A DNA stretch of 41,881 nt, taken from positions 1 to 41,881 of the forward strand of contig JBGUKW010000034.1 in assembly GCA_045114665.1 (NCBI GenBank), read 5' to 3'. The notes under the pieces were generated by a model that was not told the origin of the DNA, ran no database searches, and saw only the letters and a program-made list of their open reading frames with translations. Of the stretch, positions 3,144 through 28,577 are shown piece by piece. The stretch is from Candidatus Xenobia bacterium. Its GTDB lineage: Bacteria > Vulcanimicrobiota > CADAWZ01. The translations under genes were made by a program, and so were the position numbers. The stretch's first letter is position 1; each line of letters opens with the position of its first letter.

Positions 3144-5498
3144 ATGGATATAAGTTCTACAATAAGGTCCCAAAATTTATATAGAATTGCAGGAACTGTA
3201 AATAATATAAATTCAAACACAAAGGCCCTTCATGTTGATATGAAAAATATTAATGTAAGAGAAGACAGTGCTAATTTTGCCGACTCTTTTGTGTTTGATG
3301 GAAATGATTCTTTGCTTGGAGATGTTCCTGATCTTCGTTCTATTTTAAATACAGTAAAGAAAGACGGAGACTTTTCTTTCCCTTCAGATAAGAAAAGTCT
3401 TGAAAGTATGGCCTCCCTTTCAGGAAAACCTCTTTCTGCTGATGAACTTGCAGACGCCAAAAAACATCTCAAAGAAATTAAAGAAACAGTTGTTTCAGAA
3501 AATAATCCTAATCCTAATGAACCTAAACTTCAATGGATTAATTTGGCTGAAAGCAGTATCAAGGCTTCTGCACAAGATATAAAAGCAGAATCAAGAATTA
3601 TTGCTTGGGATAAGGTCAGGGCTTCATATAAAGGGGATATATCTCCTGTTTATGAAAAATATTTTAAAACATCTGGTATTTCACCAGCAGAAATGTTGAA
3701 AATTCTTGAAGTTTCAGATGATTTATCTTCAGATAATTCAAAAATGAAACTTGAAGGTAATAACATAGTTCCACTTATGAGAGGAAATATTTGGCGTACA
3801 AAAATGTCTTTACTTGATGAAGTTGCTAAAAATCCGATCGGTAAAGATGGCAAACCTGTTGAAGTAGATGCTGAATATTATGAACTTTCAAGTAGTGAAA
3901 TGATAGAAAAGTTGAGGAATGCTGCAAAAGCAGGAGCTACTGTCAAGGTAGTAATGGACCCAGGTCAACTTCAATATATGTCTTCTGGAGTGTTTGATGC
4001 TTCTGCGGTTGCTTCAAAACTTGGTTCTATGGAGGAATTAAAAAGAGGCTTACCAGCTGAAAATATGTCTGCAACATTTTATCCTATTCAGAAAAAACTT
4101 GGTGGTAGTGGTGAAATCATGCACCGCAAGATTTTTAGAGTAGGAGAAGATGTTGTATTTGGTGGTATGAATGCAAATAATAGATCTAATGAAAATGTTG
4201 ATTTTGCTATGAAAATCAATGGCTCAGCTGCAAGTAAGATTGGTTCTATGTTTGCTGAAGATGCTAAATTTTCTGCAGGAAAAAGCATTACGGAAGTATA
4301 TGGTTCTCGATTAGAGCCTCTTTTAAATAAACATAAGACTGTAATGATTTCAAGAGAGGGAATTGAATCTATTCTTTCAGCAAGTTTTGCAGAAAAAGCA
4401 GGGCTTGATGGGACAGAAACACATGATCAAAAAATAGATAAACTTATTGCTGCTGCTGATAAAGCAGGGATCGATCTTGGAAAAATTGCTTCTTTTCCAA
4501 ATAAGAAGACACAAGCACATGATGCAGGTAATAAGAGAGTTGCTGAATTTTTAAAAAGTAAAAATAAGGCAAAAATCAAACTCCATGATGATGGCAAAAG
4601 ATTGATGATGAAAGCAATAAAAGAAATTTTTGATTCAAATAATTCTTCTAAAAATGTCAAAAATTTAAAAAATTCAGTTCCTCCTGAGGGAAAGATTTCA
4701 GGTAAAAATTCTTCATCAGAAGTAGTTGCTGTTGCTGGAACAGGTGAAGAGAGGCAGGGAGTTCTTTTAAATGCTATTAATTCAGCAGAGAAATATATAA
4801 AAGTTTCCTGTTTTGTTATGACAAAAGATATTGCAGATGTTCTTGTTGAAAAGAAAAAAGCAATGGAAGAACAGGGTAAGCATATTGATATCGAAGTTGT
4901 AATGGATCCTGGAATTTATGCTTTTGGGGCTACTCCAAATGAAGAGGGATATAAAACACTTGAAGATGCAGGAATAAAAGTAAAATGGAATCTTTTGGAG
5001 AGATCTTCTAATCAGCATGACAGAAAAAATCACTCTAAATTGATGATAACCGATAAGATGTTACTTACGGGAAGTACAAATTTTTCTTCAAAAGGTCTTA
5101 GAGATAATTGGGAAGACAGTGATATTGTCTATTTCAATGAAAATAATGAAGAAAGTCTTGCAAATCAAAAACTTGTTACGGATGAATTTGACAAGATGTT
5201 CTCAAGACAAGCTGTTTCTGTTGACACAATTAGGCTTGCTAATGAGGAATTTAAGGATTATGATGGAGCTGATAAGGAAGTTTTAAAAGATAAGTATAGA
5301 AATACTGCAATAAGAAAAATGTGTGGTAAAATAGAAATTTATGAGCGTATGAGTGCCACATATATTGCAGGTCATCGCCCCGAAAATGTTCCTGATGAAT
5401 TTGGGGGTTATGATCTTCTCGATACCCTTGATGATGATTATATTGACAAGATGAGAGAAGACCTTCATGTTTGGAAAGATATAAAGGCTATGGCATAA
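3144..5498 (+). CDS. Phospholipase D superfamily protein with two HKD-type motifs
   Basis: HRKIFRVGED...GGMN and HSKLMITD...GSTN; RBS AAGGAGG upstream; 784 aa. Confidence 0.85.
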   Translation: MDISSTIRSQNLYRIAGTVNNINSNTKALHVDMKNINVREDSANFADSFVFDGNDSLLGDVPDLRSILNTVKKDGDFSFPSDKKSLESMASLSGKPLSADELADAKKHLKEIKETVVSENNPNPNEPKLQWINLAESSIKASAQDIKAESRIIAWDKVRASYKGDISPVYEKYFKTSGISPAEMLKILEVSDDLSSDNSKMKLEGNNIVPLMRGNIWRTKMSLLDEVAKNPIGKDGKPVEVDAEYYELSSSEMIEKLRNAAKAGATVKVVMDPGQLQYMSSGVFDASAVASKLGSMEELKRGLPAENMSATFYPIQKKLGGSGEIMHRKIFRVGEDVVFGGMNANNRSNENVDFAMKINGSAASKIGSMFAEDAKFSAGKSITEVYGSRLEPLLNKHKTVMISREGIESILSASFAEKAGLDGTETHDQKIDKLIAAADKAGIDLGKIASFPNKKTQAHDAGNKRVAEFLKSKNKAKIKLHDDGKRLMMKAIKEIFDSNNSSKNVKNLKNSVPPEGKISGKNSSSEVVAVAGTGEERQGVLLNAINSAEKYIKVSCFVMTKDIADVLVEKKKAMEEQGKHIDIEVVMDPGIYAFGATPNEEGYKTLEDAGIKVKWNLLERSSNQHDRKNHSKLMITDKMLLTGSTNFSSKGLRDNWEDSDIVYFNENNEESLANQKLVTDEFDKMFSRQAVSVDTIRLANEEFKDYDGADKEVLKDKYRNTAIRKMCGKIEIYERMSATYIAGHRPENVPDEFGGYDLLDTLDDDYIDKMREDLHVWKDIKAMA

Positions 5499-5523
5499 TT
5501 AAAGAATTTAGAGGTTTATTAAT

Positions 5524-7185
5524 ATGGAGTCTAAGTCTATTACTATAGGTATTTCTAATGGCTGGAAACTTTCTGTTCCAGAAGGCATCACTTTTGCTGA
5601 AATTGAAAAATCTTCTGGAATGGAATTTAAATATCCACCCCTTGCTGCAAGAGAAAACAATGAATTAAAAACATTGGCTGAACAAGCACATGATGGCTGT
5701 AATATTTCGTTCATAGATGGAAGATGTGAAGAGGGAAGAAGAATTTATCGTTATAGTATGGTCTTTATGATGTTAAAGGCTTTCTATAAACTATTCCCAA
5801 ATGCTTCTATAACTGTTGATCATTCTGTAACTGGTGGTGTTTGGTGTACTCCAAATATAGGCGAAACTTTTAGAAGTTCACATATGAATCAATTAAAACA
5901 AGAGATGATAGCTCTTTCTGAACAGAATATTCCTTTTAATTCATCTAAAGTAAAAGTTTCTGAGGCTATTGAAATATTTAAGAAACAGGGGAATCATTCA
6001 GATACATTGAGATTGTTTGAATGTTTTGACAATACAGATGAAATTATTGAATTATATGATTGTGGTGGATATGTTGACTATATGTTGACAAGAAGTGTTC
6101 CACATACAGGTTACTTAAAAGTATTTGATCTCTTATATTATCCGCCAGGTTTTATACTTCGTTTTCCAAGACCTAAAAATCCACTTGTTCTTTCTGAATT
6201 TACAATGGAAAGACAGATATTTAAAAAATATAGTGAATTTAAGCAGTTGGGAAAAGCAATCCAAGTTTCAGATGTAGCTGATTTAAATGCAAGTGTTGTC
6301 GCCAAAGAAACTCAGGATATTGTAAGAGTTTCGGAAGCTATTCAAGAAAAGAAACTTGCTGAAATAGCTGATATGATCTATAGGCAAAAAGACAATATCA
6401 AAGTTATTTTGATTGCAGGTCCATCTTCATCAGGTAAGACTACATTTGCAGGTAGATTGGGAATTCAACTTAGAATAAATGGAATGAAGCCTGTGGCGAT
6501 TTCTGTTGATGATTATTTTGTTGACAGAGAACATACTCCAAGAGATGAAAATGGAGAATATGATTTTGAAGTTCTCGAAGCACTTGATTTGAACTTGTTT
6601 AATGAGCATCTTGAAAAATTATTGGCTGGTGAAGAAATCGAATTGCCAAGATTTGATTTTGCTCAAGGTAAGAGATTTCCAAGTGGTAAAAAATTGAAAT
6701 TACAACCAAATCAGCCAGTCGTTATAGAAGGACTTCATGGATTGAACGATAGGCTTACAGAATCTGTTGCAAGAGAAAATAAATTCAAAATTTATATAAG
6801 TCCTCTTACCTCTCTAAATCTCGATAACCACAACAGAATTCATACGACAGACACTCGAATAATTCGTCGTATTGTGAGAGATAAATTGTACAGAGGAAGA
6901 GATGCACTTGGTACATTGAAAAAATGGGATTCAGTGAGAAGAGGGGAGAGATTGTATATCTTCCCATTCCAAGAAGAGGCTGATGTAATGTTCAATTCAT
7001 TCTTGGTATATGAAATATCTGTTTTGAGGAATTTTGTTGAAGAACCACTCAAAAATATTTCAAATGAACATCCTGAATATTCAGAAGCTCAGAGACTTTT
7101 GAAATTGTTACAGTTCTTTAGACCTATTGGAACAGAAGATATTCCACAAAATTCTATTATAAGAGAATTTATAGGAAAAGCATAA
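5524..7185 (+). CDS. Nucleoside kinase: ThrRS N-terminal-like domains fused to a uridine kinase/phosphoribulokinase domain
   Basis: Walker A IAGPSSSGKTTF, DDYFVDRE, IEGLHGLN, RRIVRD..RG, IFPFQEEAD; N-terminal TGS/ThrRS-like region. Confidence 0.88.
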   Translation: MESKSITIGISNGWKLSVPEGITFAEIEKSSGMEFKYPPLAARENNELKTLAEQAHDGCNISFIDGRCEEGRRIYRYSMVFMMLKAFYKLFPNASITVDHSVTGGVWCTPNIGETFRSSHMNQLKQEMIALSEQNIPFNSSKVKVSEAIEIFKKQGNHSDTLRLFECFDNTDEIIELYDCGGYVDYMLTRSVPHTGYLKVFDLLYYPPGFILRFPRPKNPLVLSEFTMERQIFKKYSEFKQLGKAIQVSDVADLNASVVAKETQDIVRVSEAIQEKKLAEIADMIYRQKDNIKVILIAGPSSSGKTTFAGRLGIQLRINGMKPVAISVDDYFVDREHTPRDENGEYDFEVLEALDLNLFNEHLEKLLAGEEIELPRFDFAQGKRFPSGKKLKLQPNQPVVIEGLHGLNDRLTESVARENKFKIYISPLTSLNLDNHNRIHTTDTRIIRRIVRDKLYRGRDALGTLKKWDSVRRGERLYIFPFQEEADVMFNSFLVYEISVLRNFVEEPLKNISNEHPEYSEAQRLLKLLQFFRPIGTEDIPQNSIIREFIGKA

Positions 7186-7191
7186 AATAGT

Positions 7192-7234
7192 AAAAAAAAC
7201 ATCGCTTGGATAATGAACCGAGCGATGTTTTTTT
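7192..7234. terminator. Bidirectional intrinsic terminator between convergent genes
   Basis: AAAAAAACATCGCTTGG-loop-CCGAGCGATGTTTTTTT immediately after the 7185 stop. Confidence 0.85.
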
Positions 7235-7266
7235 ATTGGAGGTTATTTTTATTGAATCGGCTGTTA

Positions 7267-7314
7267 AATAATTTTCAAAAATATTAACATTGTATCGTAT
7301 TTTTGAAAATTATT
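7267..7314. repeat. 17-bp perfect inverted repeat; arm recurs near 18411 and 19023
   Basis: AATAATTTTCAAAAATA (7267-7283) / TATTTTTGAAAATTATT (7298-7314). Confidence 0.65.
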
Positions 7315-16173: not shown

Positions 16174-17049
16174 ATGGCACGATATTTAAAATTTGTTTTT
16201 GTCTTATTGATTTCTTTTGTATTTTTGTTTGGAAATTCGAATGGAAATTCGAAATATTCACTTGTTTTAAAAGGTGAATTTACTCAGGGAAGTATTCTAT
16301 TTGCTGAAGTAAATGGAGTTTCACAAGAAGCAAAAGGAACTGTTACTTTTAACAATAATGAATATGATTTTGAAAACGATAAAAATACATTATTTACAAG
16401 TATTCCTGTTGGTCTTCCAACAAAACCTGGAGACTATAAAGTAGATGTTAATATAGAAGAAAATGGAAATAAATATTCGTTTTCAAGAACAATAAGTATT
16501 AAATCAAAATCCTATGGAACTCAACAACTTTGGATGTCAGAAGATCAACTTGCAAAATATGATAATCCACAGGCGGACAGAGATAATGACGCTATTTTAG
16601 AGGCATTGAAATCAGATGTTGAAGATATTGAATGGGAAAGTCAATTTATAAAGCCTGTTCAAGGTAGAACTTCTACAGGATATGGTCTTAGAAGATATTA
16701 TAATGATGATCCTGAGCCTGAATTTCATAAGGGAATCGATATAGCTTCTTGGAATGGTTATAATGTAGTTGCACCGCAAAATGCAATTGTTGTTATGGCA
16801 AAAGAGAATTTAATTCTTCATGGAACAGTCATTGTTTTAGACCACGGCAGAGGAGTTGGAAGTTTATATCTTCATTTGGGTTCTATTTCTGTTAAAGAGG
16901 GACAGTATGTAAAGCAGGGACAGGTAATTGGCACTATTGGCTCATCAGGTGCATCAACTGGACCACATCTTCACTGGGCAACATATAGTCACGGAGTACC
17001 TGTAAATCCTTGGCAATTATTTGCAGTTCCTTCATCTTGGATAAAATAA
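16174..17049 (+). CDS. M23 family metallopeptidase, exported
   Basis: Signal peptide; HKGID (HxxxD), DHG, SLYLHL, STGPHLHW (HxH). Confidence 0.92.
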   Translation: MARYLKFVFVLLISFVFLFGNSNGNSKYSLVLKGEFTQGSILFAEVNGVSQEAKGTVTFNNNEYDFENDKNTLFTSIPVGLPTKPGDYKVDVNIEENGNKYSFSRTISIKSKSYGTQQLWMSEDQLAKYDNPQADRDNDAILEALKSDVEDIEWESQFIKPVQGRTSTGYGLRRYYNDDPEPEFHKGIDIASWNGYNVVAPQNAIVVMAKENLILHGTVIVLDHGRGVGSLYLHLGSISVKEGQYVKQGQVIGTIGSSGASTGPHLHWATYSHGVPVNPWQLFAVPSSWIK

Positions 17050-17058
17050 TAAAGTGGG

Positions 17059-17979
17059 ATGGGGGAAAAAGTGAAAGAACTTATAGATTTTAAATCTTCT
17101 ATTGTTAAAAATATGCTTTCTGATTTGTTAAAAGATAAGACAACGAAAAAAAATATTATTTTTGCAACAAGTGATTATGATGATGAAAATTTGGGAATAA
17201 ATGAGAAATCAGAAGTAACTGTTGATATTCTTTCTCGTTCAGATTTTTCTCCTATTCAGCCAAGAGTTAGTAAAAGTCTTGAAGAGCAGACAGATAGAAC
17301 TAGGAAAAAAGCAGAAGTTTTTACTCCTTCGTGGATTTGTAACAAGATGAACAATCAATTTGATATTGAGTGGTTCGGTCGTGAGAGAGTTTTTAACAAA
17401 GAGGAAAATCAGAATTGGGAAGTAACATCTGAGCCTGTTTATTTTGAAGCTCCTAATGATTGGCAAAAATATATAAAAACAACTTGTTTAGAAATTGCTT
17501 GTGGCGAAGCTCCGTTTATTGTGTCGAGGTATGATGTTTCAAGTGGGGAGAAGATTCCTATTAATAGGCGAATAGGGATTTTGGATAGGAAACTTAGAGT
17601 TGTCAGTGAAAATACCGATAATGAGGTTGATTGGCTAAAGTGGGCTTTTTCTTCTTATAAAGCTGTTTATGGATACGAACTTCAAGGCGATAACCTACTT
17701 ATTGCTCGAATAAACCTACTTTTGACATTTGTTGAATATATGAAAGACAAATGGAATCGTGATCCAAAAAATGAAGAATTGAGAGAAATTGTGGATATTA
17801 TTACTTGGAATTTTTGGCAGATGGACGGAATAACTGAGACGATTCCTTTTAAAAAGCCTTGTGAAAATCAAGGTCAGTTGCTATTATTTGGAGTAGAAAA
17901 AAAAGATGATGAAGTAGATTGTGTGATATTTGATTGGGAAAATAACAAAGAGATAAAATATAGGGATTTGAAGAAGTAA
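17059..17979 (+). CDS. DNA amino-methyltransferase, N-terminal (SAM-binding) half of a restriction-modification system
   Basis: Motif X KAEVFTP, motif I-like LEIACGEAPF, VYGYELQGDNL, NFWQMDG; no (D/N)PPY motif. Confidence 0.82.
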   Translation: MGEKVKELIDFKSSIVKNMLSDLLKDKTTKKNIIFATSDYDDENLGINEKSEVTVDILSRSDFSPIQPRVSKSLEEQTDRTRKKAEVFTPSWICNKMNNQFDIEWFGRERVFNKEENQNWEVTSEPVYFEAPNDWQKYIKTTCLEIACGEAPFIVSRYDVSSGEKIPINRRIGILDRKLRVVSENTDNEVDWLKWAFSSYKAVYGYELQGDNLLIARINLLLTFVEYMKDKWNRDPKNEELREIVDIITWNFWQMDGITETIPFKKPCENQGQLLLFGVEKKDDEVDCVIFDWENNKEIKYRDLKK

Positions 17980-17983
17980 ACCG

Positions 17984-18058
17984 AAGGGGCTGTGAAAAAA
18001 GTAAATAGAATAGATGTCATTAATTATATAAAAAAATACTTTTTCACAGTCCCTTTTT
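17984..18058. repeat. Long hairpin / MITE-like palindrome followed by T tract (possible terminator)
   Basis: AAGGGGCTGTGAAAAAAGTA ... TACTTTTTCACAGTCCCTT; left arm recurs at 23480-23501 (21/22). Confidence 0.75.
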
Positions 18059-18060
18059 TA

Positions 18061-18089
18061 TTGTAATTTAGCACATATTGTGGTAAAAT
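18061..18089 (+). promoter_or_regulatory. Sigma70-type promoter with extended -10
   Basis: TTGTAA-N17-TAAAAT with TGn preceding the -10, about 40 nt upstream of ATG 18129. Confidence 0.6.
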
Positions 18090-18128
18090 AAATATTAGAG
18101 AGCAATAAATAAAAATGGGTTATGGGGT

Positions 18129-18398
18129 ATGAAAAAAAGTACAAAAAAGAAAAAGGGAAGAATGGAAATATCAAGTTTATTGAAAAAAACTGCGGATAAA
18201 TATATAAAACAGAACAAAGATAAATATATTGCTAAGGGCAAAGCCGAGGGCGAAAAGCTCGGAATGGCTAAATCATCGTTAAATAGTATAAAATCAATAA
18301 TTGAGACTATGAATATAACAGCTGAAAAAGCAATGAAGGCTTTAAAAATTCCACAGGAAGAACATGATTTTTATTTGGCACAGTTAAATACCCTCTAA
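18129..18398 (+). CDS. Small protein resembling the C-terminal domain of Rpn / PD-(D/E)XK nuclease-family transposases
   Basis: YIAKGKAEGEKLG repeat-like segment then SIKSIIETMNITAEKAMKALKIP...YL; no nuclease domain; alternative start 18162. Confidence 0.62.
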   Translation: MKKSTKKKKGRMEISSLLKKTADKYIKQNKDKYIAKGKAEGEKLGMAKSSLNSIKSIIETMNITAEKAMKALKIPQEEHDFYLAQLNTL

Positions 18399-18586
18399 AG
18401 GTGAAAGGAAAATTTTCAAAAATACTATTTTTTTATTTTTAGCCGAAAGTTACTTTGTTTGAAAAAGCTCACTCTAAACACTCGCAAGCTCATGATGTCG
18501 TTCGCTTTTTCTCACAAAATAACATTTATCTTATTTAGTGTTTTTTGCTAATATTTCTTTCTACTTGTGACGAAATTGCAAGTTTT

Positions 18587-18733
18587 AGTTTTGGGGTATA
18601 ATAAGACTCACTAAACAATTTTACCCCAAGGTTTATGTATAATTAAAAAAAATAACCATTCTTTTTCTAAGTGCATTTTTATAGAAACTACTATAGAAAA
18701 TTGAAATCGTTCCCTTTATTATACCCCAAAACT
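18587..18733. mobile_element. 147-bp MITE-like element with perfect 18-bp terminal inverted repeats
   Basis: AGTTTTGGGGTATAATAA (18587-18604) / TTATTATACCCCAAAACT (18716-18733); non-coding interior. Confidence 0.7.
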
Positions 18734-18796
18734 TTGTATTATTTGTTAAATAGTGCAGTTTTACAATCTACTCAAACAGTCTGTATTTAGGGGCGA

Positions 18797-18968
18797 TGTC
18801 ATTGCGAGGAAGCTGTGCGACCGTGGCAATCTCAACCACTTAATTTAAATTTAGTAATTTATTAAATAGACCAGGCAGAAATTGGATAAATAGAGGCGAT
18901 CGACTCAATTTTTAAGTAAATAATAATTTACAGGCTTAGATTGCCACGGCTAAAGCCTCGCAATGACA
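18797..18968. repeat. GC-rich palindromic element of the GTCATTGCGAG...GCAATC / GATTGC...CTCGCAATGAC type (RPE/REP-like)
   Basis: Left arm 18797-18832, right arm 18938-18968; arms are GC-rich relative to surroundings. Confidence 0.8.
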
Positions 18969-19020
18969 AAGTGGCAGTATACAGGCATATATTGGATAGT
19001 TTACAGCAAATTTTTATTTA
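18887..19020 (+). repeat. Direct repeat copy 1 (about 135 bp) upstream of the NPPY gene
   Basis: Aligns with 23517-23657 with few substitutions and small indels. Confidence 0.92.
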
Positions 19021-19121
19021 CTTATTTTTGAAAATTATTTAACTGCAAAATTAATAACAAAAATTGATTTCCGTAAGAGTAATTGGACAAAAAATAAAAG
19101 AAAAAAACGAAAGGAAAAAAT

Positions 19122-20135
19122 ATGAAATTTGATTTTGTTATTGGAAATCCGCCTTATCAAGGAGATCAACAGGGTAGTAGTCATTATACATTACCTGTTT
19201 ATGATAAGTTTTTAGAAGCAGGATTTGAATTAGCGGATAAAGTCTTAATGATTCACCCTGCAAGATGTTTATTTGAAGCTGGACAAACCCCTAAAGAATG
19301 GAACCAAAAAATGTTAAAAGATGAACATTTTAAAGTTCTTGATTACCAAGAGGATGCAAAAAAAGTTTTCCAAAACACAGATATTAAGGGTGGAGTTGTT
19401 ATTTCATATAGAGATAAAACAAAAAAATTTAAACCAATAAAACAATTTAATTTTATACTCTATCCAAAACTAAAAAGTATATATGAAAAAATAGAAAATG
19501 ATTTAACGAGCAAAGGGAATGTAGGTTATATTATAAATGTTTCTACTAAATTTAATTTAAATAATCTTATTTTAGATTATCCTCAATATGAAGGTAGAGA
19601 ACGAAGATTATCATCTAATGTTTTGTCATTTGATTGTTTTTCAGATGAACCTAAAAAAAATGATGATATTTGTATCTATGGAGTAATAAAAAATCGTAGA
19701 ACAAAAAAATATATTTTGAAAAAATATATAGATATATCATCTGAAAATATTTATAAATATAAAGTTATTCTTCCTAAAGCAGATGGCAATGGTCTATTTG
19801 GAGAAATTGTAACAAATCCTTTGGTTATAAATATTTCTACAGGTTATACTCATACTTTTTATGGTATAGGCTGTTTTGATAATAAATTTGAGGCTGAAAA
19901 TACTTTGAAATATACTAAAACAAAATTTGCAAGAACTTTTCTAAGTATACTAAAAGTAACTCAAAATGTAAATGCAGATACTTGGGCATTTGTCCCTCTA
20001 CAGGACTTCACCGACAAATCGGACATCGACTGGACGAAATCCATTAACGATATAGATAAACAGCTTTATAAGAAGTACAATCTTTCACAAGACGAGATCG
20101 ACTTTATAGAGACCAATGTAAAAGAAATGAACTGA
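19122..20135 (+). CDS. Eco57I-type methyltransferase catalytic half plus target recognition domain
   Basis: Begins MKFDFVIGNPPY (motif IV), IHPAR, VF.NTDIKGGV, C-terminal FVPLQDF...IDWTKSI..ID.QLYKKY.L; no motif I. Confidence 0.88.
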   Translation: MKFDFVIGNPPYQGDQQGSSHYTLPVYDKFLEAGFELADKVLMIHPARCLFEAGQTPKEWNQKMLKDEHFKVLDYQEDAKKVFQNTDIKGGVVISYRDKTKKFKPIKQFNFILYPKLKSIYEKIENDLTSKGNVGYIINVSTKFNLNNLILDYPQYEGRERRLSSNVLSFDCFSDEPKKNDDICIYGVIKNRRTKKYILKKYIDISSENIYKYKVILPKADGNGLFGEIVTNPLVINISTGYTHTFYGIGCFDNKFEAENTLKYTKTKFARTFLSILKVTQNVNADTWAFVPLQDFTDKSDIDWTKSINDIDKQLYKKYNLSQDEIDFIETNVKEMN

Positions 20136-23100
20136 TGGCAGTATTTCGAAAATTGATCCAAGAAAAAAAAGGAAATGATCTAAAGATGAACAGTGTCCCA
20201 AAAATTCAATCATCAATAAAAGTTATCCCTCAAATATATGCCTACACTACTTTGAATGTTTCTTATCAAAATGGTTACATAAAAATTGGATATACCGAAC
20301 AAGATGTCAATAAACGAATTTTACAGCAGACACAGACTGCAGGCATAAGGGCAAATCTTGAATGGCAGGGAAACGCAATTTTTGAAGAAAAAGGCGATAG
20401 ATTTACCGATCACGATTTCCATTCATATCTTCGCAAAAATGGCATACTACAGCCACAAGATTTGGGCAATAAAGATTTTCCTGAAAATGGCAGAAATGAA
20501 TGGTTTCACACAACTTCCCAAGAATCAAAAAAACTTTTTGATGAATTTAGGAAAAATCGTGGAATAACAAAGACAAAAGACAAAGCTATTCCTTATGTCT
20601 TGCGTTCAGAACAAAGAGAAGCCATTGCTATCACAAAAAGATATTATGACACTTCAGATAAAAAGAAAGAATTTTTGTGGAATGCAAAACCTCGTTTTGG
20701 AAAAACTCTTACAGTCTATGATTTTTGCAAACAGATAAAAGCTGAAAAAATTTTGATTGTAACAAATCGTCCTGCTATTGCAAATTCTTGGTTTTCAGAT
20801 TATGCAAAATTTTTGGGTTCTGAATCAGGATATTATTTTGTAAGTGAAGTTGATTCTTTAAAGGGAAAAAATGGTGTTCTATCTCGTGAAGATTATGCAA
20901 ATTTGGACGAAGTGGAAGCAAAATTTATTGAGTTTGTGAGCCTTCAAGATTTAAAGGGAAGTAAATATTTTGGCGGTCATTATGATAAATTGCGTGAAGT
21001 AAGAGACATTACTTGGGATATTCTTGTAATTGATGAAGCACATGAAGGTGTCGATACATATAAAACAGATGTTGCTTTTGATAATATACATCAAAAGTTT
21101 ACACTTCACCTGTCTGGCACACCTTTTAAGGCTTTGGCAAATGAAAAATTTGATTCAGACGCCATTTTTAATTATACTTACGCAGATGAACAGAAAAGAA
21201 AGCGTGATTGGGATTATTCTTTAGGCGAAAATCCTTATTTGCCACTTCCAAAATTAAATTTATATACCTATCAGATGTCAGAAATTATCCGTGACGAGAT
21301 CTCACAGGGAATAGAAATAGATGGAGAAACGGAAGAATATGCTTTTGATTTAAATGAGTTTTTCAGTGTAAATAAAAATGGAAAGTTTATTCATGAATCT
21401 TCTGTTGATAAATTTCTTGATTCCCTCACAGAGAAAAAGAAATTCCCATTTTCTACAGCTGAATTGAGAGACGAATTAAAACACACATTTTGGTTTCTTG
21501 ATAGAGTTGACAGTGCAAAGGCAATGGCTAAAAAACTAAAGGAACATAAGATTTTTAGAGATTATGAAATCGTTCTCGCTGCAGGTGATGGAAAAATTGA
21601 TGATGACGATGAAAATAAAAAGTCTTATGATAAAGTAGTTGAAGCAATAAAAAAATATGACAAGACAATAACCCTTTCTGTTGGTCAACTGACAACAGGG
21701 ATAACTATTCCTGAATGGACGGCTGTCTTGATGTTGTGTAATGTAAAATCTCCTGCACTGTATATGCAGGCTGCTTTTAGATGTCAAAATCCATGTTTGT
21801 TTAAGGTGGGGAATGAGTTTAAAAGAAAAGAAAATGGCTATGTTTTTGATTTCGATCCTGCTCGTACTTTGATTATTTTTGAAAAGTTTGCAAATGATCT
21901 TTCTGTAAAAACTGTTTCAGGTGGTGGAGATGTTGAAACAAGAAAGAAAAATGTTTGTGAACTGCTAAATTTCTTTCCTGTAATTGGAGAAGATGAAAAT
22001 GGCGAATTAATCGAACTCGATGCAGAAAAAGTCTTGACAATACCACGCAAAATTAAATCTGTTGAAGTCGTCAGACGAGGATTTATGAGCAATTTCTTAT
22101 TTCAAAATATACACAATATCTTTTCTGCTTCAAGTGATATTCTTGATATTATCAATCGTTTTGAGGCTGTGGAAGAACCTAAGAATTATTTGCAAGAAGG
22201 ACTTGGAGATGATCTTTCACTTGATGAAAATGGCGAAGTTCTACTTAGTGATGAATTTGTTTTGGGGCGTGAAAACGAAATTTTTGGAAACAAAGTTTAT
22301 GGGGCAAATCCAATAGACACCTTTGTTGATGTAGTTTATGATGAACCCATTGAAAAAAAAGTAGTTAATGAAGCTAAAAATATTCTTAAAAATGATATAA
22401 AATACATAATTGATACTGCACAAGAAAATTATGGCTCTGATATTAAGCCAAATGTAAAAAAACAACTTGAAAAGAAATTATTCAATGAAGCAGATAATAT
22501 GATTAATAAATCTTGGGATAATTATAATACCCAAATAACCTGCATTCAAAGTGATCGTGAAAAAGCTCTTATATCAAAGGAAGAAACTGGCAAAACAGAG
22601 GAAGAGATAAATTTTGAGTTTGACAATAAAATCGAGATTGCAGATAATGATTTCAAAAATGATTTGGAAAATAAAATAAATGATTTTATTTCAGATTCTA
22701 AACAAGATGTTATAAAAACAGTAGAGATAGATATTCAAGAAAGAGAAAAAGATAAAATAGAAGAAGGTATAAGAGACCATTTGAGAGGATTTTCTCGCAC
22801 TATTCCTTCATTTTTGATGGCTTATGGAAACGAAAATGTAACATTGGAAAATTTCGACAAAATCGTTCCAGACAATGTATTTGAGGAAGTAACAAGTATA
22901 ACACTTGATGAATTTAGATTGTTGAGAGATGGGGGAGTAGATAATGGAAAAGAATTTAAAGGGCAGATTTTTGATTCAATTGTTTTCAATGATTCTGTAA
23001 AAGAATTTTTGGCATTGAAAAAGAAATTGGCAAATTATTTTGATGAAAAAAGCACAGAAGATATTTTTGATTATATCCCACCACAAAAGACAAATCAGAT

Positions 23101-23479
23101 TTTTACTCCAAAAAAAGTTGTAAAAAAAATGGTTGATATGTTGGAAGAAGAAAATCCAAATTGTTTTGATGATCCAAACAAAACTTTTATTGATTTGTAC
23201 ATGAAATCAGGACTTTATATTGCAGAAATCGTAAAAAGACTTTACAAAAGCAAAAAGATGAGAGATATTTTTCCAGATAAAATGGAAAGATTGAAACATA
23301 TTTTTGAAAAGCAGGTTTTTGGGCTTGCTCCAACAGAAATTATATATAAAATAGCAACAAATTATATTTTAGGCTTTGATGAAAATTTAGATATAAAGAA
23401 ATACAATTTTAGACATCTAAACACTCTGCCTTTTGCAAAAAACGGAACACTTAACAACTATCTAGAATTTTTATTCTGA
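20135..23479 (+). CDS. Restriction subunit: GIY-YIG/T5orf172-like nuclease + SF2 helicase + C-terminal degenerate methyltransferase-like domain
   Basis: IYAY...IKIGYT...KRI...EWF; AKPRFGKT, DEAH, SGT, QAAFR; C-terminal NQIFTP...FIDLYMKSG...QVFG; alternative start 20186. Confidence 0.88.
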   Translation: MAVFRKLIQEKKGNDLKMNSVPKIQSSIKVIPQIYAYTTLNVSYQNGYIKIGYTEQDVNKRILQQTQTAGIRANLEWQGNAIFEEKGDRFTDHDFHSYLRKNGILQPQDLGNKDFPENGRNEWFHTTSQESKKLFDEFRKNRGITKTKDKAIPYVLRSEQREAIAITKRYYDTSDKKKEFLWNAKPRFGKTLTVYDFCKQIKAEKILIVTNRPAIANSWFSDYAKFLGSESGYYFVSEVDSLKGKNGVLSREDYANLDEVEAKFIEFVSLQDLKGSKYFGGHYDKLREVRDITWDILVIDEAHEGVDTYKTDVAFDNIHQKFTLHLSGTPFKALANEKFDSDAIFNYTYADEQKRKRDWDYSLGENPYLPLPKLNLYTYQMSEIIRDEISQGIEIDGETEEYAFDLNEFFSVNKNGKFIHESSVDKFLDSLTEKKKFPFSTAELRDELKHTFWFLDRVDSAKAMAKKLKEHKIFRDYEIVLAAGDGKIDDDDENKKSYDKVVEAIKKYDKTITLSVGQLTTGITIPEWTAVLMLCNVKSPALYMQAAFRCQNPCLFKVGNEFKRKENGYVFDFDPARTLIIFEKFANDLSVKTVSGGGDVETRKKNVCELLNFFPVIGEDENGELIELDAEKVLTIPRKIKSVEVVRRGFMSNFLFQNIHNIFSASSDILDIINRFEAVEEPKNYLQEGLGDDLSLDENGEVLLSDEFVLGRENEIFGNKVYGANPIDTFVDVVYDEPIEKKVVNEAKNILKNDIKYIIDTAQENYGSDIKPNVKKQLEKKLFNEADNMINKSWDNYNTQITCIQSDREKALISKEETGKTEEEINFEFDNKIEIADNDFKNDLENKINDFISDSKQDVIKTVEIDIQEREKDKIEEGIRDHLRGFSRTIPSFLMAYGNENVTLENFDKIVPDNVFEEVTSITLDEFRLLRDGGVDNGKEFKGQIFDSIVFNDSVKEFLALKKKLANYFDEKSTEDIFDYIPPQKTNQIFTPKKVVKKMVDMLEEENPNCFDDPNKTFIDLYMKSGLYIAEIVKRLYKSKKMRDIFPDKMERLKHIFEKQVFGLAPTEIIYKIATNYILGFDENLDIKKYNFRHLNTLPFAKNGTLNNYLEFLF

Positions 23480-23689
23480 GGCTGTGAAAAAATTAAATAG
23501 ATTGAGTACAGATTTCTAAATAGAGCCGATCGACTTAATTTTAAGTAAATAATAATTTACAGGCTTAGATTGCCACGGTAGCACAGCTCCCTCGCAATGA
23601 CAAAGTGGCAGTATACAGGCATATAATATTAGATAGTTTAGAGCAACTTTTTATTTATTTTTATTAACTATCACAACGAGTTAATTTAC
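23480..23689 (+). repeat. Composite repeat: arm of the 17988 hairpin, direct repeat copy 2 (23517-23657) containing an RPE-like arm, and arm of the 11440 element
   Basis: 23480-23501 matches 17988-18009; 23517-23657 matches 18887-19020; 23666-23689 matches reverse complement of 11434-11457 (22/24). Confidence 0.88.
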
Positions 23690-27074: not shown

Positions 27075-27693
27075 CAGAAGTACATAAATACATTATTGAT
27101 TCTATTAGTGAAACACAATAAGGGATACCAGTCCAAAAAGTTAATAAATATAAAAGTCCCCAGCCTGGTTTTCCTAAATAAAATTTGTGAATACCAAATC
27201 CACCAAAAAAGAATGCCAATATTATAGCAAGAATTTTATTTTTACTCGATTTTTTCTGTTCATTATTTATATTTATATTTATTTGTTGATTTGGGATACC
27301 CATTGGCATTTGGTTTGGATATTGATTTGGGATACCCATTGGCATTTGGTTTGGATATTGATTTGGCATACCCATTGGCATTTGGTTAGGATATTGATTG
27401 GGCATACCCATTGGCATTTGATTAGGATATTGATTGGGCATACCCATTGGCATTTGGTTAGGATATTGATTGGGCATACCCATTGGCATTTGGTTAGGAT
27501 ATTGATTAGGCATATCCATATTTGGGATAAATTGAGCTTTATCGTTGTTTATATTTATATTAGGTAAATCCTTAGGAGATGGAGAATTTGACACTTTTTC
27601 AGATGATTCTGGAAGTTTGGGCAATTCACTACCACATATATTGCAAAATGTTGCACCTTTAAGTTGTTCAGTTCCACAATTTGGACAAAACAT
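27049..27693 (-). CDS. Zinc-ribbon + Q/N/M/P tandem repeat linker + TM2 domain protein
   Basis: MFCPNCG...FCNICG; six MPNQYPNQMPMG units; KNKILAIILAFFFGGFGIHKFYLG. Confidence 0.88.
   Translation of the reverse strand: MFCPNCGTEQLKGATFCNICGSELPKLPESSEKVSNSPSPKDLPNININNDKAQFIPNMDMPNQYPNQMPMGMPNQYPNQMPMGMPNQYPNQMPMGMPNQYPNQMPMGMPNQYPNQMPMGIPNQYPNQMPMGIPNQQINININNEQKKSSKNKILAIILAFFFGGFGIHKFYLGKPGWGLLYLLTFWTGIPYCVSLIESIMYLCTSDDDWNKKY
27287..27513. repeat. 36-bp intragenic tandem repeat, six units plus a partial unit
   Basis: Contiguous units of TGATTTGGGATACCCATTGGCATTTGGTTTGGATAT-like sequence, no spacers. Confidence 0.92.
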
Positions 27694-27713: not shown

Positions 27714-28577
27714 TTAGTATTTTTTTTGGAAGTCTTCATTTGACATACATAAATACATTATGGATTCTGCAATAGAAATACAATAAGGTAGAAAACTTAG
27801 CATAAATATTGCTTCGGAATCTGTAGCTAATGCAAATATGAGTGAGAAAAATGGAAATAAAGCATATAAAACTCCCCACCCATATTTTCCCAAATAGAAT
27901 TTGTGAGCTCCTAAAGTTCCAAAACAGAATGCCAATGCCGCAGCAAGAAATTTATTTTTTTTCTTTTTTGTTGGTTTATCCATTATGTTTATATTTATTT
28001 GTTGTTGCATAGGCATGCCTGTATTTTGCATATTTGGCATTTGATTGGGATATTGCATAGGCATACCCATATTTTGCATAATTGGCATTTGATTATGGTT
28101 TGGTATCCCCATATTTTGCATATTGGGATTGACCATTTGGTTTGGATGTTGCATAGGCATGCCTGTATTTTGCATATTTGGCATTTGATTGGGATATTGT
28201 ATTGGCATACCCATATTTTGCATAACTGGCATTTGATTATGGTTTGGCATACCCATATTTTGCATATTGGAATTAACCATTTGATTCGGATACCGCACTT
28301 GTGGCATACCTATATTTGGCAATGTAGGTATGGATGGCATAGTAGGCATATTAGGTATTTGTTTTTGAATATTTCCATTAAAAGGATCGTTTGGAATTTT
28401 TCTTAAGTTTATGCCTTGTTGTTCATTTGTAAAATTGTTAGGTATAGAATTCTCTTCAATATTATTTAATGATTTTGGGGGAGGAGATACTACTTTTATA
28501 TTTGAAAGTTCTGCCCCACAATTACTGCAAAATGTTGTTCCTTGAAGTTGCTCTGTGCCACAGGTTGGACAAAACAT
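27714..28577 (-). CDS. Zinc-ribbon + Q/N/M/P-rich linker + TM2 domain protein (paralogue)
   Basis: MFCPTCGTEQL...FCSNCG; KNKFLAAALAFCFGTLGAHKFYLG; RBS AAGGAG. Confidence 0.88.
   Translation of the reverse strand: MFCPTCGTEQLQGTTFCSNCGAELSNIKVVSPPPKSLNNIEENSIPNNFTNEQQGINLRKIPNDPFNGNIQKQIPNMPTMPSIPTLPNIGMPQVRYPNQMVNSNMQNMGMPNHNQMPVMQNMGMPIQYPNQMPNMQNTGMPMQHPNQMVNPNMQNMGIPNHNQMPIMQNMGMPMQYPNQMPNMQNTGMPMQQQININIMDKPTKKKKNKFLAAALAFCFGTLGAHKFYLGKYGWGVLYALFPFFSLIFALATDSEAIFMLSFLPYCISIAESIMYLCMSNEDFQKKY
28003..28290. repeat. 144-bp (48-aa) intragenic tandem duplication, two copies
   Basis: TTGCATAGGCATGCCTGTATTTTGC at 28005 and 28149; protein unit PNQMVN...GMPMQ repeated. Confidence 0.88.

Follow-up and report, generated by a model that had tools for sequence, protein, structure and literature searches.

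In Type I restriction-modification systems the subunit HsdS is shared between M2S and R2M2S, and in Type III systems Mod is shared with Res. In the Type ISP enzymes LlaGI and LlaBIII, as characterised in the sections of two papers drawn on here (PMC3553950, PMC2790903), an Mrr nuclease, a helicase, a methylase and a target recognition domain (TRD) are joined in a single polypeptide. Type ISP enzymes are the closest known systems to the three genes, A, B and C, that we analysed in a 41,881-nucleotide stretch from Candidatus Xenobia bacterium (contig JBGUKW010000034.1), the whole of which is called the window below. Our best explanation, to which we give even chances as a whole, is that the trio is a cassette of a widespread, ATP-dependent restriction-modification family that resembles Type ISP, has a T5orf172 nuclease and has its gamma-class methylase cut between strands 3 and 4, and in which B, incapable of binding S-adenosylmethionine (SAM) alone, would have its fold completed in trans by a SAM-binding half. 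The genes, and the domains of C, are as follows.

17059..17979, + strand: gene A, 306 amino acids, half of a gamma-class N6-adenine DNA methyltransferase, the SAM-binding one, with motifs X, I, II and III
19122..20135, + strand: gene B, 337 amino acids, catalytic half (motifs IV-VIII), variable TRD and conserved C-terminal helix motif
20135..23479, + strand: gene C, 1114 amino acids, T5orf172 nuclease, superfamily 2 (SF2) helicase, long linker and second SAM-binding methylase half
20237..20545, + strand: T5orf172 (GIY-YIG-like) nuclease domain of C, residues 35-137 (Pfam PF10544, E 8.5e-5, 23.4 bits, gathering score 20)
20597..21784, + strand: SF2 helicase/translocase core of C, ResIII and a weak Helicase_C match (Pfam)
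23090..23476, + strand: C tail, second SAM-binding half, with motif X NQIFTPK, motif I FIDLYMKSG(LY), QVFGLAPTE and NFRHLNTL; it stops about where NPPY would come

The likeness to Type ISP lies in the modules and their order. Relatives with C and B fused run nuclease, SF2 translocase, linker, gamma-class adenine methylase and TRD; C of the window has an SF2 helicase-like ATPase motor, and the trio has the motif order X, I, II, III and, across the cut, IV, followed by the TRD. However, the window nuclease is T5orf172/GIY-YIG-like and not Mrr (PD-(D/E)xK), the cut in the methylase falls between strands 3 and 4, an extra SAM-binding half, A, is always encoded beside it, and the window has three polypeptides instead of one; even CB-fused relatives still need a separate A. 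Type ISP enzymes are further marked by hemimethylation of an asymmetric site and by cleavage when translocating enzymes collide. According to part of PMC3936762, the H. pylori Type ISP cluster HP0667-0669 is split by frameshifts. The B. subtilis DnmA-YeeB-YeeC cluster, in the part of PMC9973331 used here, consists of an MmeI-like methylase, the helicase YeeB and the T5orf172 protein YeeC, and changes in phage sensitivity are reported for Vibrio homologues. It resembles the window trio in holding the three activities in one conserved cluster, but its methylase is one chain and its helicase and T5orf172 protein are separate, whereas the window fuses the latter two and splits the methylase. MANTIS/Gao_RL, in the parts of its description covered, is a different, four-protein system, and a preprint on methyltransferase topology does not treat split enzymes in the parts covered. 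Type IIL/IIG enzymes (MmeI, DrdV), CamA, M.BseCI and M.TaqI have the same methylase-TRD fold as is modelled for A plus B but are single chains with no helicase. M.AquI and M.EcoHK31I are cytosine (C5) methylases made of two separately encoded pieces; to our knowledge these have one pairing only, with no second alternative partner and no helicase-nuclease. No paper on the split-methylase T5orf172-helicase family was found in the literature searched, with supplements outside its scope. The annotations of its members go no further than "restriction endonuclease subunit M", "Eco57I domain protein" and "hypothetical". NCBIfam gave no meaningful family for A, B or C.

Gene A contains AEVFTPSW as motif X (residue 88), LEIACGEAPF as a TaqI-like motif I, VYGYE as motif II and WNFWQMDG as a motif III-like segment; scanned for [NDS]PP[YFWH], its 306 residues gave no match and thus hold no catalytic NPPY-like motif. 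The canonical motif I, E207 after strand 2 and D256 are all invariant in 35 sequences. The REBASE-derived PADLOC MTase_II profile PDLC03390 covers A at full length (profile 12-323 of 327, E 2.9e-101). An AlphaFold2 model of A alone (pLDDT 87.1, pTM 0.89) has as its best fold match the MmeI methylase domain (Z 11.1, root-mean-square deviation (rmsd) 2.9, 149 aligned; model 68-305 on chain 298-525), followed by CamA, LlaBIII and DrdV at Z ~7.4. These matches came from the VIA wide search, and Foldseek with A alone returned nothing at E 0.001 or better. Searches of PDB sequences with A, an A profile, B and an AB profile gave nothing relevant, the sole row being a calponin-homology chain for A at E 0.14. 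Counted as clusters at 90% identity, the A family, which is highly conserved, comprises at least 7849 short members (7849 of 7999 scored candidates of 168-536 amino acids) and at least 4207 long ones (4207 of 6119 candidates of 537-2000 amino acids). The short relatives listed are mostly 303-323 amino acids long with ~57-61% identity and come from Lachnospiraceae, Butyrivibrio, Methanomicrobium and others. The best 120 long matches are all 552-681 amino acids long, and the 118 of them that carry PF07669 are natural AB fusions.

Gene B begins with MKFDFVIGNPPY and has NPPY (motif IV) at residue 9. A motif scan of the B chain found no FTP motif and neither of the SAM-binding motifs X and I, and in the match of B residues 1-83 to the Pfam Eco57I family (PF07669; E 1.6e-15, 58 bits, cut-off 25.3) the profile takes part only from position 73 to its end at 171. 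Motifs X/I and motif IV stand in one chain only in fused relatives; in the window they are divided, A and the C tail each carrying X and I and B carrying IV. The PADLOC model PDLC03375 (REBASE-derived MTase_II) covers B at full length (10-348 of 348, E 6.1e-32), and B also matches the C-terminal part of the PADLOC IIG model PDLC03626 (positions 1011-1359 of 1359). PADLOC treats A and B as two distinct "Type II methyltransferase" families. In the B family alignment the ends are conserved and the middle is hypervariable.

At its N-terminus C matches T5orf172 and, weakly, MUG113 in Pfam, with no Mrr family among the matches; KIG, R61 and EWF of the T5orf172 domain are invariant in 17 sequences. 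ResIII matches residues 155-331 (E 5.3e-13) with Walker A (PRFGKT) and DEAH present, and the Walker A RFGK, DE(AH), SGTP and QxxFRxQ of the helicase core are likewise invariant in 17 sequences. PADLOC gave no match for C. The stop codon TGA of B overlaps the start codon ATG of C at 20135, and an alternative start is Met18 (20186). The contigs of three of four public runs lack 48 nucleotides at window positions 20119-20168, a part that takes in B's last codons and C's opening ones, and relatives align only from about residue 20, suggesting that C starts at Met18 and that the B/C overlap is not conserved. The domain assignments agree with a sequence-only reading of this DNA that preceded our analysis. 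It had described A as having motif X and a motif I-like loop without NPPY, and B as opening at FDFVIGNPPY and carrying the TRD without motif I, both of which the open reading frames (ORFs) and the motif scans bear out; its description of C as a T5orf172-like nuclease with an SF2 helicase and a second methylase half at the end was confirmed by Pfam and by the motifs.

That reading had also taken the C tail for a degenerate copy of the A-type half, which has to be given up. With hhalign just 19 columns of A and the tail were aligned, around motif X (probability 3%), and the tail motifs are family-specific and conserved. Whether A and B are fused or not, the tail is strongly conserved (69% mean column identity in 13 sequences), and it is best read as the native SAM-binding half of the helicase enzyme and not as a copy of A.

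That A and B make one methylase fold is supported by thousands of natural AB fusions, an AlphaFold2 model of such a fusion and a model of the complex. The fusion (L043, 650 amino acids) is predicted as a single body (pLDDT 86.8, pTM 0.82). Its model matches whole methylase-TRD enzymes: CamA (Z 18.9), MmeI (17.6), DrdV (16.7), LlaGI (16.6; rmsd 7.2, 383 aligned), BrxX (16.5) and LlaBIII (16.2; rmsd 7.3, 398 aligned), the LlaGI and LlaBIII matches being a further likeness to Type ISP. Small single-domain methylases align across the A/B junction: METTL5 (6h2u_A) with 185 of 202 residues on model positions 58-411 (rmsd 3.2, Z 14.2), and likewise PH1948 with 176 of 196 aligned (Z 13.0). Thus, the A part and the first ~100 residues of B are predicted to form one Rossmann-type methylase domain of canonical gamma-class, to which the TRD is added. 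In a three-chain model of A, the C tail and B from the window, A reached an ipSAE of 0.62 (runs 0.58, 0.62 and 0.68) against 0.00 in all three controls; among solved complexes 58 of 80 get to the mark, among mismatched pairs 2 of 110. Agreement between the runs is 88% of contacts or more, and the partner has a pLDDT of 80 or higher. Strand 4 of B pairs with strand 1 of A in the model, B residues 4-8 touching A residues 142-146; more widely, residues 1-12 of B are placed against A residues 141-148 and the motif X helix (87-104). Every listed contact of A is with B and A scores 0.00 when B is replaced; so, in the model, A does not bind the C tail.

The pairing of B with the C tail is seen in a second set of natural fusions. 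In the clade that has A followed by a CB fusion, each fused protein has a motif X (LTP or ITP) and a motif I ([DE]-I/L-x-x-K-[ST]-G) of its own, immediately before MKFD..GNPPY, and Pfam Eco57I spans its whole profile in them, junction included. A tail of the window type (EDIFDYIPPQKTNQIFTPK ... F.DLY.KSG ... Q.[FY]G.AP[TS]) runs on into the MKFD..GNPPY of B in five further loci (L126, L130, L134, L138 and L140), and in L111 a B gene in its own right comes after it. Single-ORF CB fusions in both clades and the A, C, B order of L111 support B as the natural continuation of the C tail. An impression from a regular-expression search, that CB fusions are without a SAM-binding half, was ruled out, as their sequences carry motifs X and I upstream of NPPY. 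The sequence-only reading had proposed that B completes the fold with either A or the C tail. For A:B this is upheld by fusions, AlphaFold2 and the complex model, and for C:B by natural fusions. That both pairings occur in one cell, that modification and restriction are divided between them, and all catalytic activity are what we infer.

To follow the architecture of the family, A, B and C were mapped on 80 genome loci seeded with A. The three are separate genes in the order A, B, C in 27 loci; 15 have AB fused and then C, and 25 have A and then C followed by B, 19 of these with a single CB ORF of 1322-1561 amino acids. Nine loci are cut by contig ends and four have A without B or C; one of the latter (L023), whose neighbours were scanned, adjoins a Type I system. 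The homologues are thus not nearly always AB fusions, and this part of what the sequence-only reading had said would refute it does not hold. On a quick tree of A, AB fusion needs at least four changes. A second set of 80 metagenome loci was seeded with the helicase part of C, and 52 of them had at least 2.2 kb upstream. Separate A, B and C were found in 21 of the 52, an AB fusion with C in 22 and the order A, C, B in one (L111), and in the other eight neither A nor B was seen upstream at E 1e-5. The CB fusions with a window-type tail (1397-1444 amino acids) account for five of the eight. L130 and L140 have A downstream, and L126, L134 and, by gene arrangement, L138 have a different methylase ORF upstream that holds the N-terminal half only. 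Among the remaining three, C is followed by B in L131 but A is not seen, and L146 and L150 are cut or truncated.

Two of the N-half-only ORFs beside CB fusions match other methylase families, the one in L126 (3875-4618) positions 22-119 of 259 of Pfam MmeI_Mtase and the one in L134 (5127-5984) positions 20-106 of 311 of N6_Mtase. The role of an orphan SAM-binding half seems to have been filled more than once, and not only by the A family.

Judged from these gene maps, the trio is conserved across phyla and its modules co-occur as A, B and C apart, as AB plus C, as A plus CB, as A, C and B apart, and as CB plus A, with two SAM-binding halves per B across the architectures. Through these permutations natural fusions tie B both to A and to the C tail, and they support A, B and C as one functional set. 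The system is held by two of 40 relatives searched, one of the same genus and one of another family, and on a quick tree the nearest A homologues are from unrelated phyla and a methanogen; this distribution fits horizontal transfer.

Within the set, B appears to have a history of its own. In 65 loci with all segments, pairwise distances were compared between segments. The Spearman coefficient is only 0.17-0.25 when either the core or the end of B is set against A, the C tail or the helicase, whereas it is 0.56-0.69 among these last three. With the helicase signal removed, the partial r is 0.42 between A and the C tail and 0.04-0.05 between B and either. In a genome of the same genus (G002), the pieces of A are 88-98% identical to the window and C is 88% identical, B merely 48%. 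The weak correlation supports that B evolves independently of A and C, as an exchanged cassette or module would.

In the mechanism that we propose, A:B would be a free-standing methylase marking host DNA, and C tail:B would be the same specificity module attached to the helicase-nuclease, which would recognise unmodified sites and cleave after translocation. One B would serve two enzymes, and since both use it, a swap of B would shift modification and restriction specificity together, as with HsdS. Type I and Type III systems would be alike in having one specificity component for modification and restriction, with specificity shifting in step, and B is exchanged in a cassette-like manner. Unlike in those systems, the shared B also bears the catalytic half of the methylase and would join by fold completion, not by docking of a folded subunit.

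The idea of a shared half is partly supported, as both pairings have Rosetta-stone support and A:B has model support too, and a B completed by A for host protection and by the C tail for site recognition is, in our judgement, evenly poised between right and wrong. Several points weigh against it. The evidence consists of sequence comparison and predicted structures. The three-chain model scored A alone and so bears on A:B and not on C:B, and it may pass through its likeness to solved one-chain methylases; the AlphaFold2 alignment for the fusion consisted of 13 natural fusions, with the other rows unpaired. C-type halves differ from A in having Lys at the first Gly of motif I and in missing the acidic residue after strand 2, and with these changes the C-type half may not bind SAM. 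In the fused forms, AB plus C and A plus CB, no free B remains for one of the SAM-binding halves, and a simple shared-subunit model gives no account of this. As a rule, the halves of a Rossmann fold hardly come apart once bound, which makes a later exchange of B unlikely, and any sharing of B would be set at synthesis. The full form of the idea, in which three genes would yield two enzymes of one specificity by fold complementation and fused relatives would supply a second B from an internal start, is put forward tentatively, with somewhat less than even prospects.

The chief alternative, possible if rather unlikely, is a single heterotrimeric A-B-C holoenzyme that would carry out both modification and restriction, comparable to the Mod2Res of Type III, with no sharing of B. 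Only one half, most likely A, would complete B; the C tail would be a pseudo-methylase, serving as a docking or regulatory domain by which the helicase-nuclease is tied to the A:B methylase. The canonical motif I of A with its invariant E207 and D256 would fit such a division, as would the Lys and the missing acidic residue of the C-type halves. The three-chain model points the same way, pairing B with A although the C tail was offered, as does the correlation between A and C tail distances that outlasts removal of the helicase signal while B correlates with neither; in addition, every architecture retains two N-terminal halves per B. Against it speak the CB fusions, whose tail runs on into B precisely as the halves do in one-chain methylases and whose Pfam Eco57I match crosses the junction. 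The model also lacks a contact between A and the C tail, A scoring 0.00 when B was replaced.

Returning to the shared half-enzyme, its difficulty with the fused forms is addressed by a variant, which we regard as distinctly improbable, with two copies of B per A and C in every architecture. A:B and C-tail:B would form a Mod2-like pseudo-dimer, and fused genes would make free B by internal initiation at a retained Met. Among 120 AB fusions examined, 116 had the motif and 113 of these retain the Met of the B start. In 16 of 29 AB fusions this Met comes after a Shine-Dalgarno-like stretch, counted where AGGAGG is matched at 5 or more of its 6 positions; the start of a separate B gene does so in 29 of 46 cases, and other ATGs in frame do so in 29 of 993. 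An internal start as the source of free B in the fused forms is hinted at by these counts. However, such a stretch was found in only 2 of 7 CB fusions, several CB fusions are without the Met, and retention of the Met and the Shine-Dalgarno-like stretch may merely reflect recent fusion.

The region between A and B, and a repeat after C, are made of sequences that occur throughout the genome.

17980..19121, no strand: A-B spacer, 1.1 kb mosaic of repeats dispersed through the genome, outside the system
17983..18057, + strand: hairpin and U-run just 3' of the A stop codon, 20-bp stem, terminator-like, made of dispersed repeat units
18129..18398, + strand: passenger ORF, 89 amino acids, lysine-rich, within the repeat mosaic
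23517..23662, no strand: dispersed repeat copy directly after C

The two parts of the spacer have 52 and 56 matches elsewhere in the genome (2.73 Mb, 318 contigs). In relatives, the distance from the A stop to the B start is mostly 8-24 nucleotides (tblastn ends); the 1.1 kb gap is local and not a family feature. The sequence-only reading was right that A and B are separate, intact ORFs 1.1 kb apart. The direct repeats around B and C were considered as cassette borders, which was ruled out, as the repeat has more than 50 matches genome-wide and another copy follows C. The RNA of the hairpin is predicted to fold with -24.5 kcal/mol (z -5.8), none of 200 shuffles being equally good, and both its arms are found again elsewhere in the genome. 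A scan of the spacer gave 16 promoter-like sites against 10.8 expected and one terminator-like site against 0.9 expected, and no Rfam family reached its gathering score anywhere in the window. The 89-amino-acid ORF has no Pfam or PADLOC match, and a 78%-identical copy of its DNA lies on another contig. In G002 the copy of this ORF (L165 6449-6790) has 113 amino acids, the internal peptide GKAEGEKLGIAK being repeated extra times.

Several short dispersed repeat families make up window positions 17980-19121 and 23517-23662, some of them palindromic (GTCATTGCGAGG...CCGTGGCAAT), with dozens of matches across the 318 contigs; these repeats occupy intergenic spaces and probably fragment the assembly. 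Tandem repeats of 36 nucleotides (6 copies) and of 48/96 nucleotides lie among paralogous segments at 27250-27537 and 27998-28285.

In other genomes the A-B junction holds inserts of a different kind: GmrSD (L018 8918-10906), a HEPN/nucleotidyltransferase pair (L026 6872-8452) and a stand-alone T5orf172 protein (L027 8897-10638). As judged from these loci, the junction seems to be a landing site for defence genes within the operon.

A and B of the window are further marked by an inverted repeat.

17646..17675, no strand: inverted-repeat arm 1, inside A (codons ~197-206), 30 nucleotides, 87% complementary, with a 20-nucleotide exact core
20051..20080, no strand: inverted-repeat arm 2, inside B (codons ~311-320)

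The repeat is lineage-specific: the longest exact inverted match between A and B in 123 other loci is 13 nucleotides, against 20 in the window, and window A deviates from the family consensus exactly at arm 1 (RAFQSVYGY to SSYKAVYGY). In the G002 locus (L165, which is G002:C13:8000-26000; positions 4751-7269), the 2.4 kb that the arms enclose has the opposite orientation, and its two joints are reciprocal and fall within the core. The products are a truncated A of 234 amino acids, an A remnant of 113 amino acids on the opposite strand and a B with its last 17 residues replaced. This inversion may be a one-off disruption, or it may be an ON/OFF (phase) switch that silences methylation and targeting together. 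In the contigs of four public runs over positions 16800-20800, none of the 15 listed joints, out of 23, changes strand at the A/B arms, so the two orientations are not seen together in one sample. The contigs of these runs are fragmented by repeats; in two runs they end at or near the A arm, and in one of these near the B arm too. A decaying window copy, made defunct by repeat insertion and the split, would agree with the 1.1 kb of repeats and the terminator-like hairpin between A and B-C, with the A and B of G002 broken by inversion and with the presence of the system in only two of 40 relatives searched, but is very improbable, since all three ORFs are of full length compared with their families and keep every conserved motif, and insertions between A and B are known in other, intact loci, where they carry other defence genes.

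If B serves both A and the C tail, the family would represent a third solution to the problem of keeping a methylase and a nuclease on the same sequence, in which half a catalytic domain is shared, and this sharing would explain the movement of B from operon to operon as one piece. The family, which is very large, spans bacteria and methanogens, and A and B offer a natural split-methylase pair for engineering programmable methylation. If true, the shared half-enzyme would couple modification and restriction specificity in a new way, distinct from the docking by which a folded S or Mod subunit joins its partners, and thousands of gut and rumen microbes would have it.

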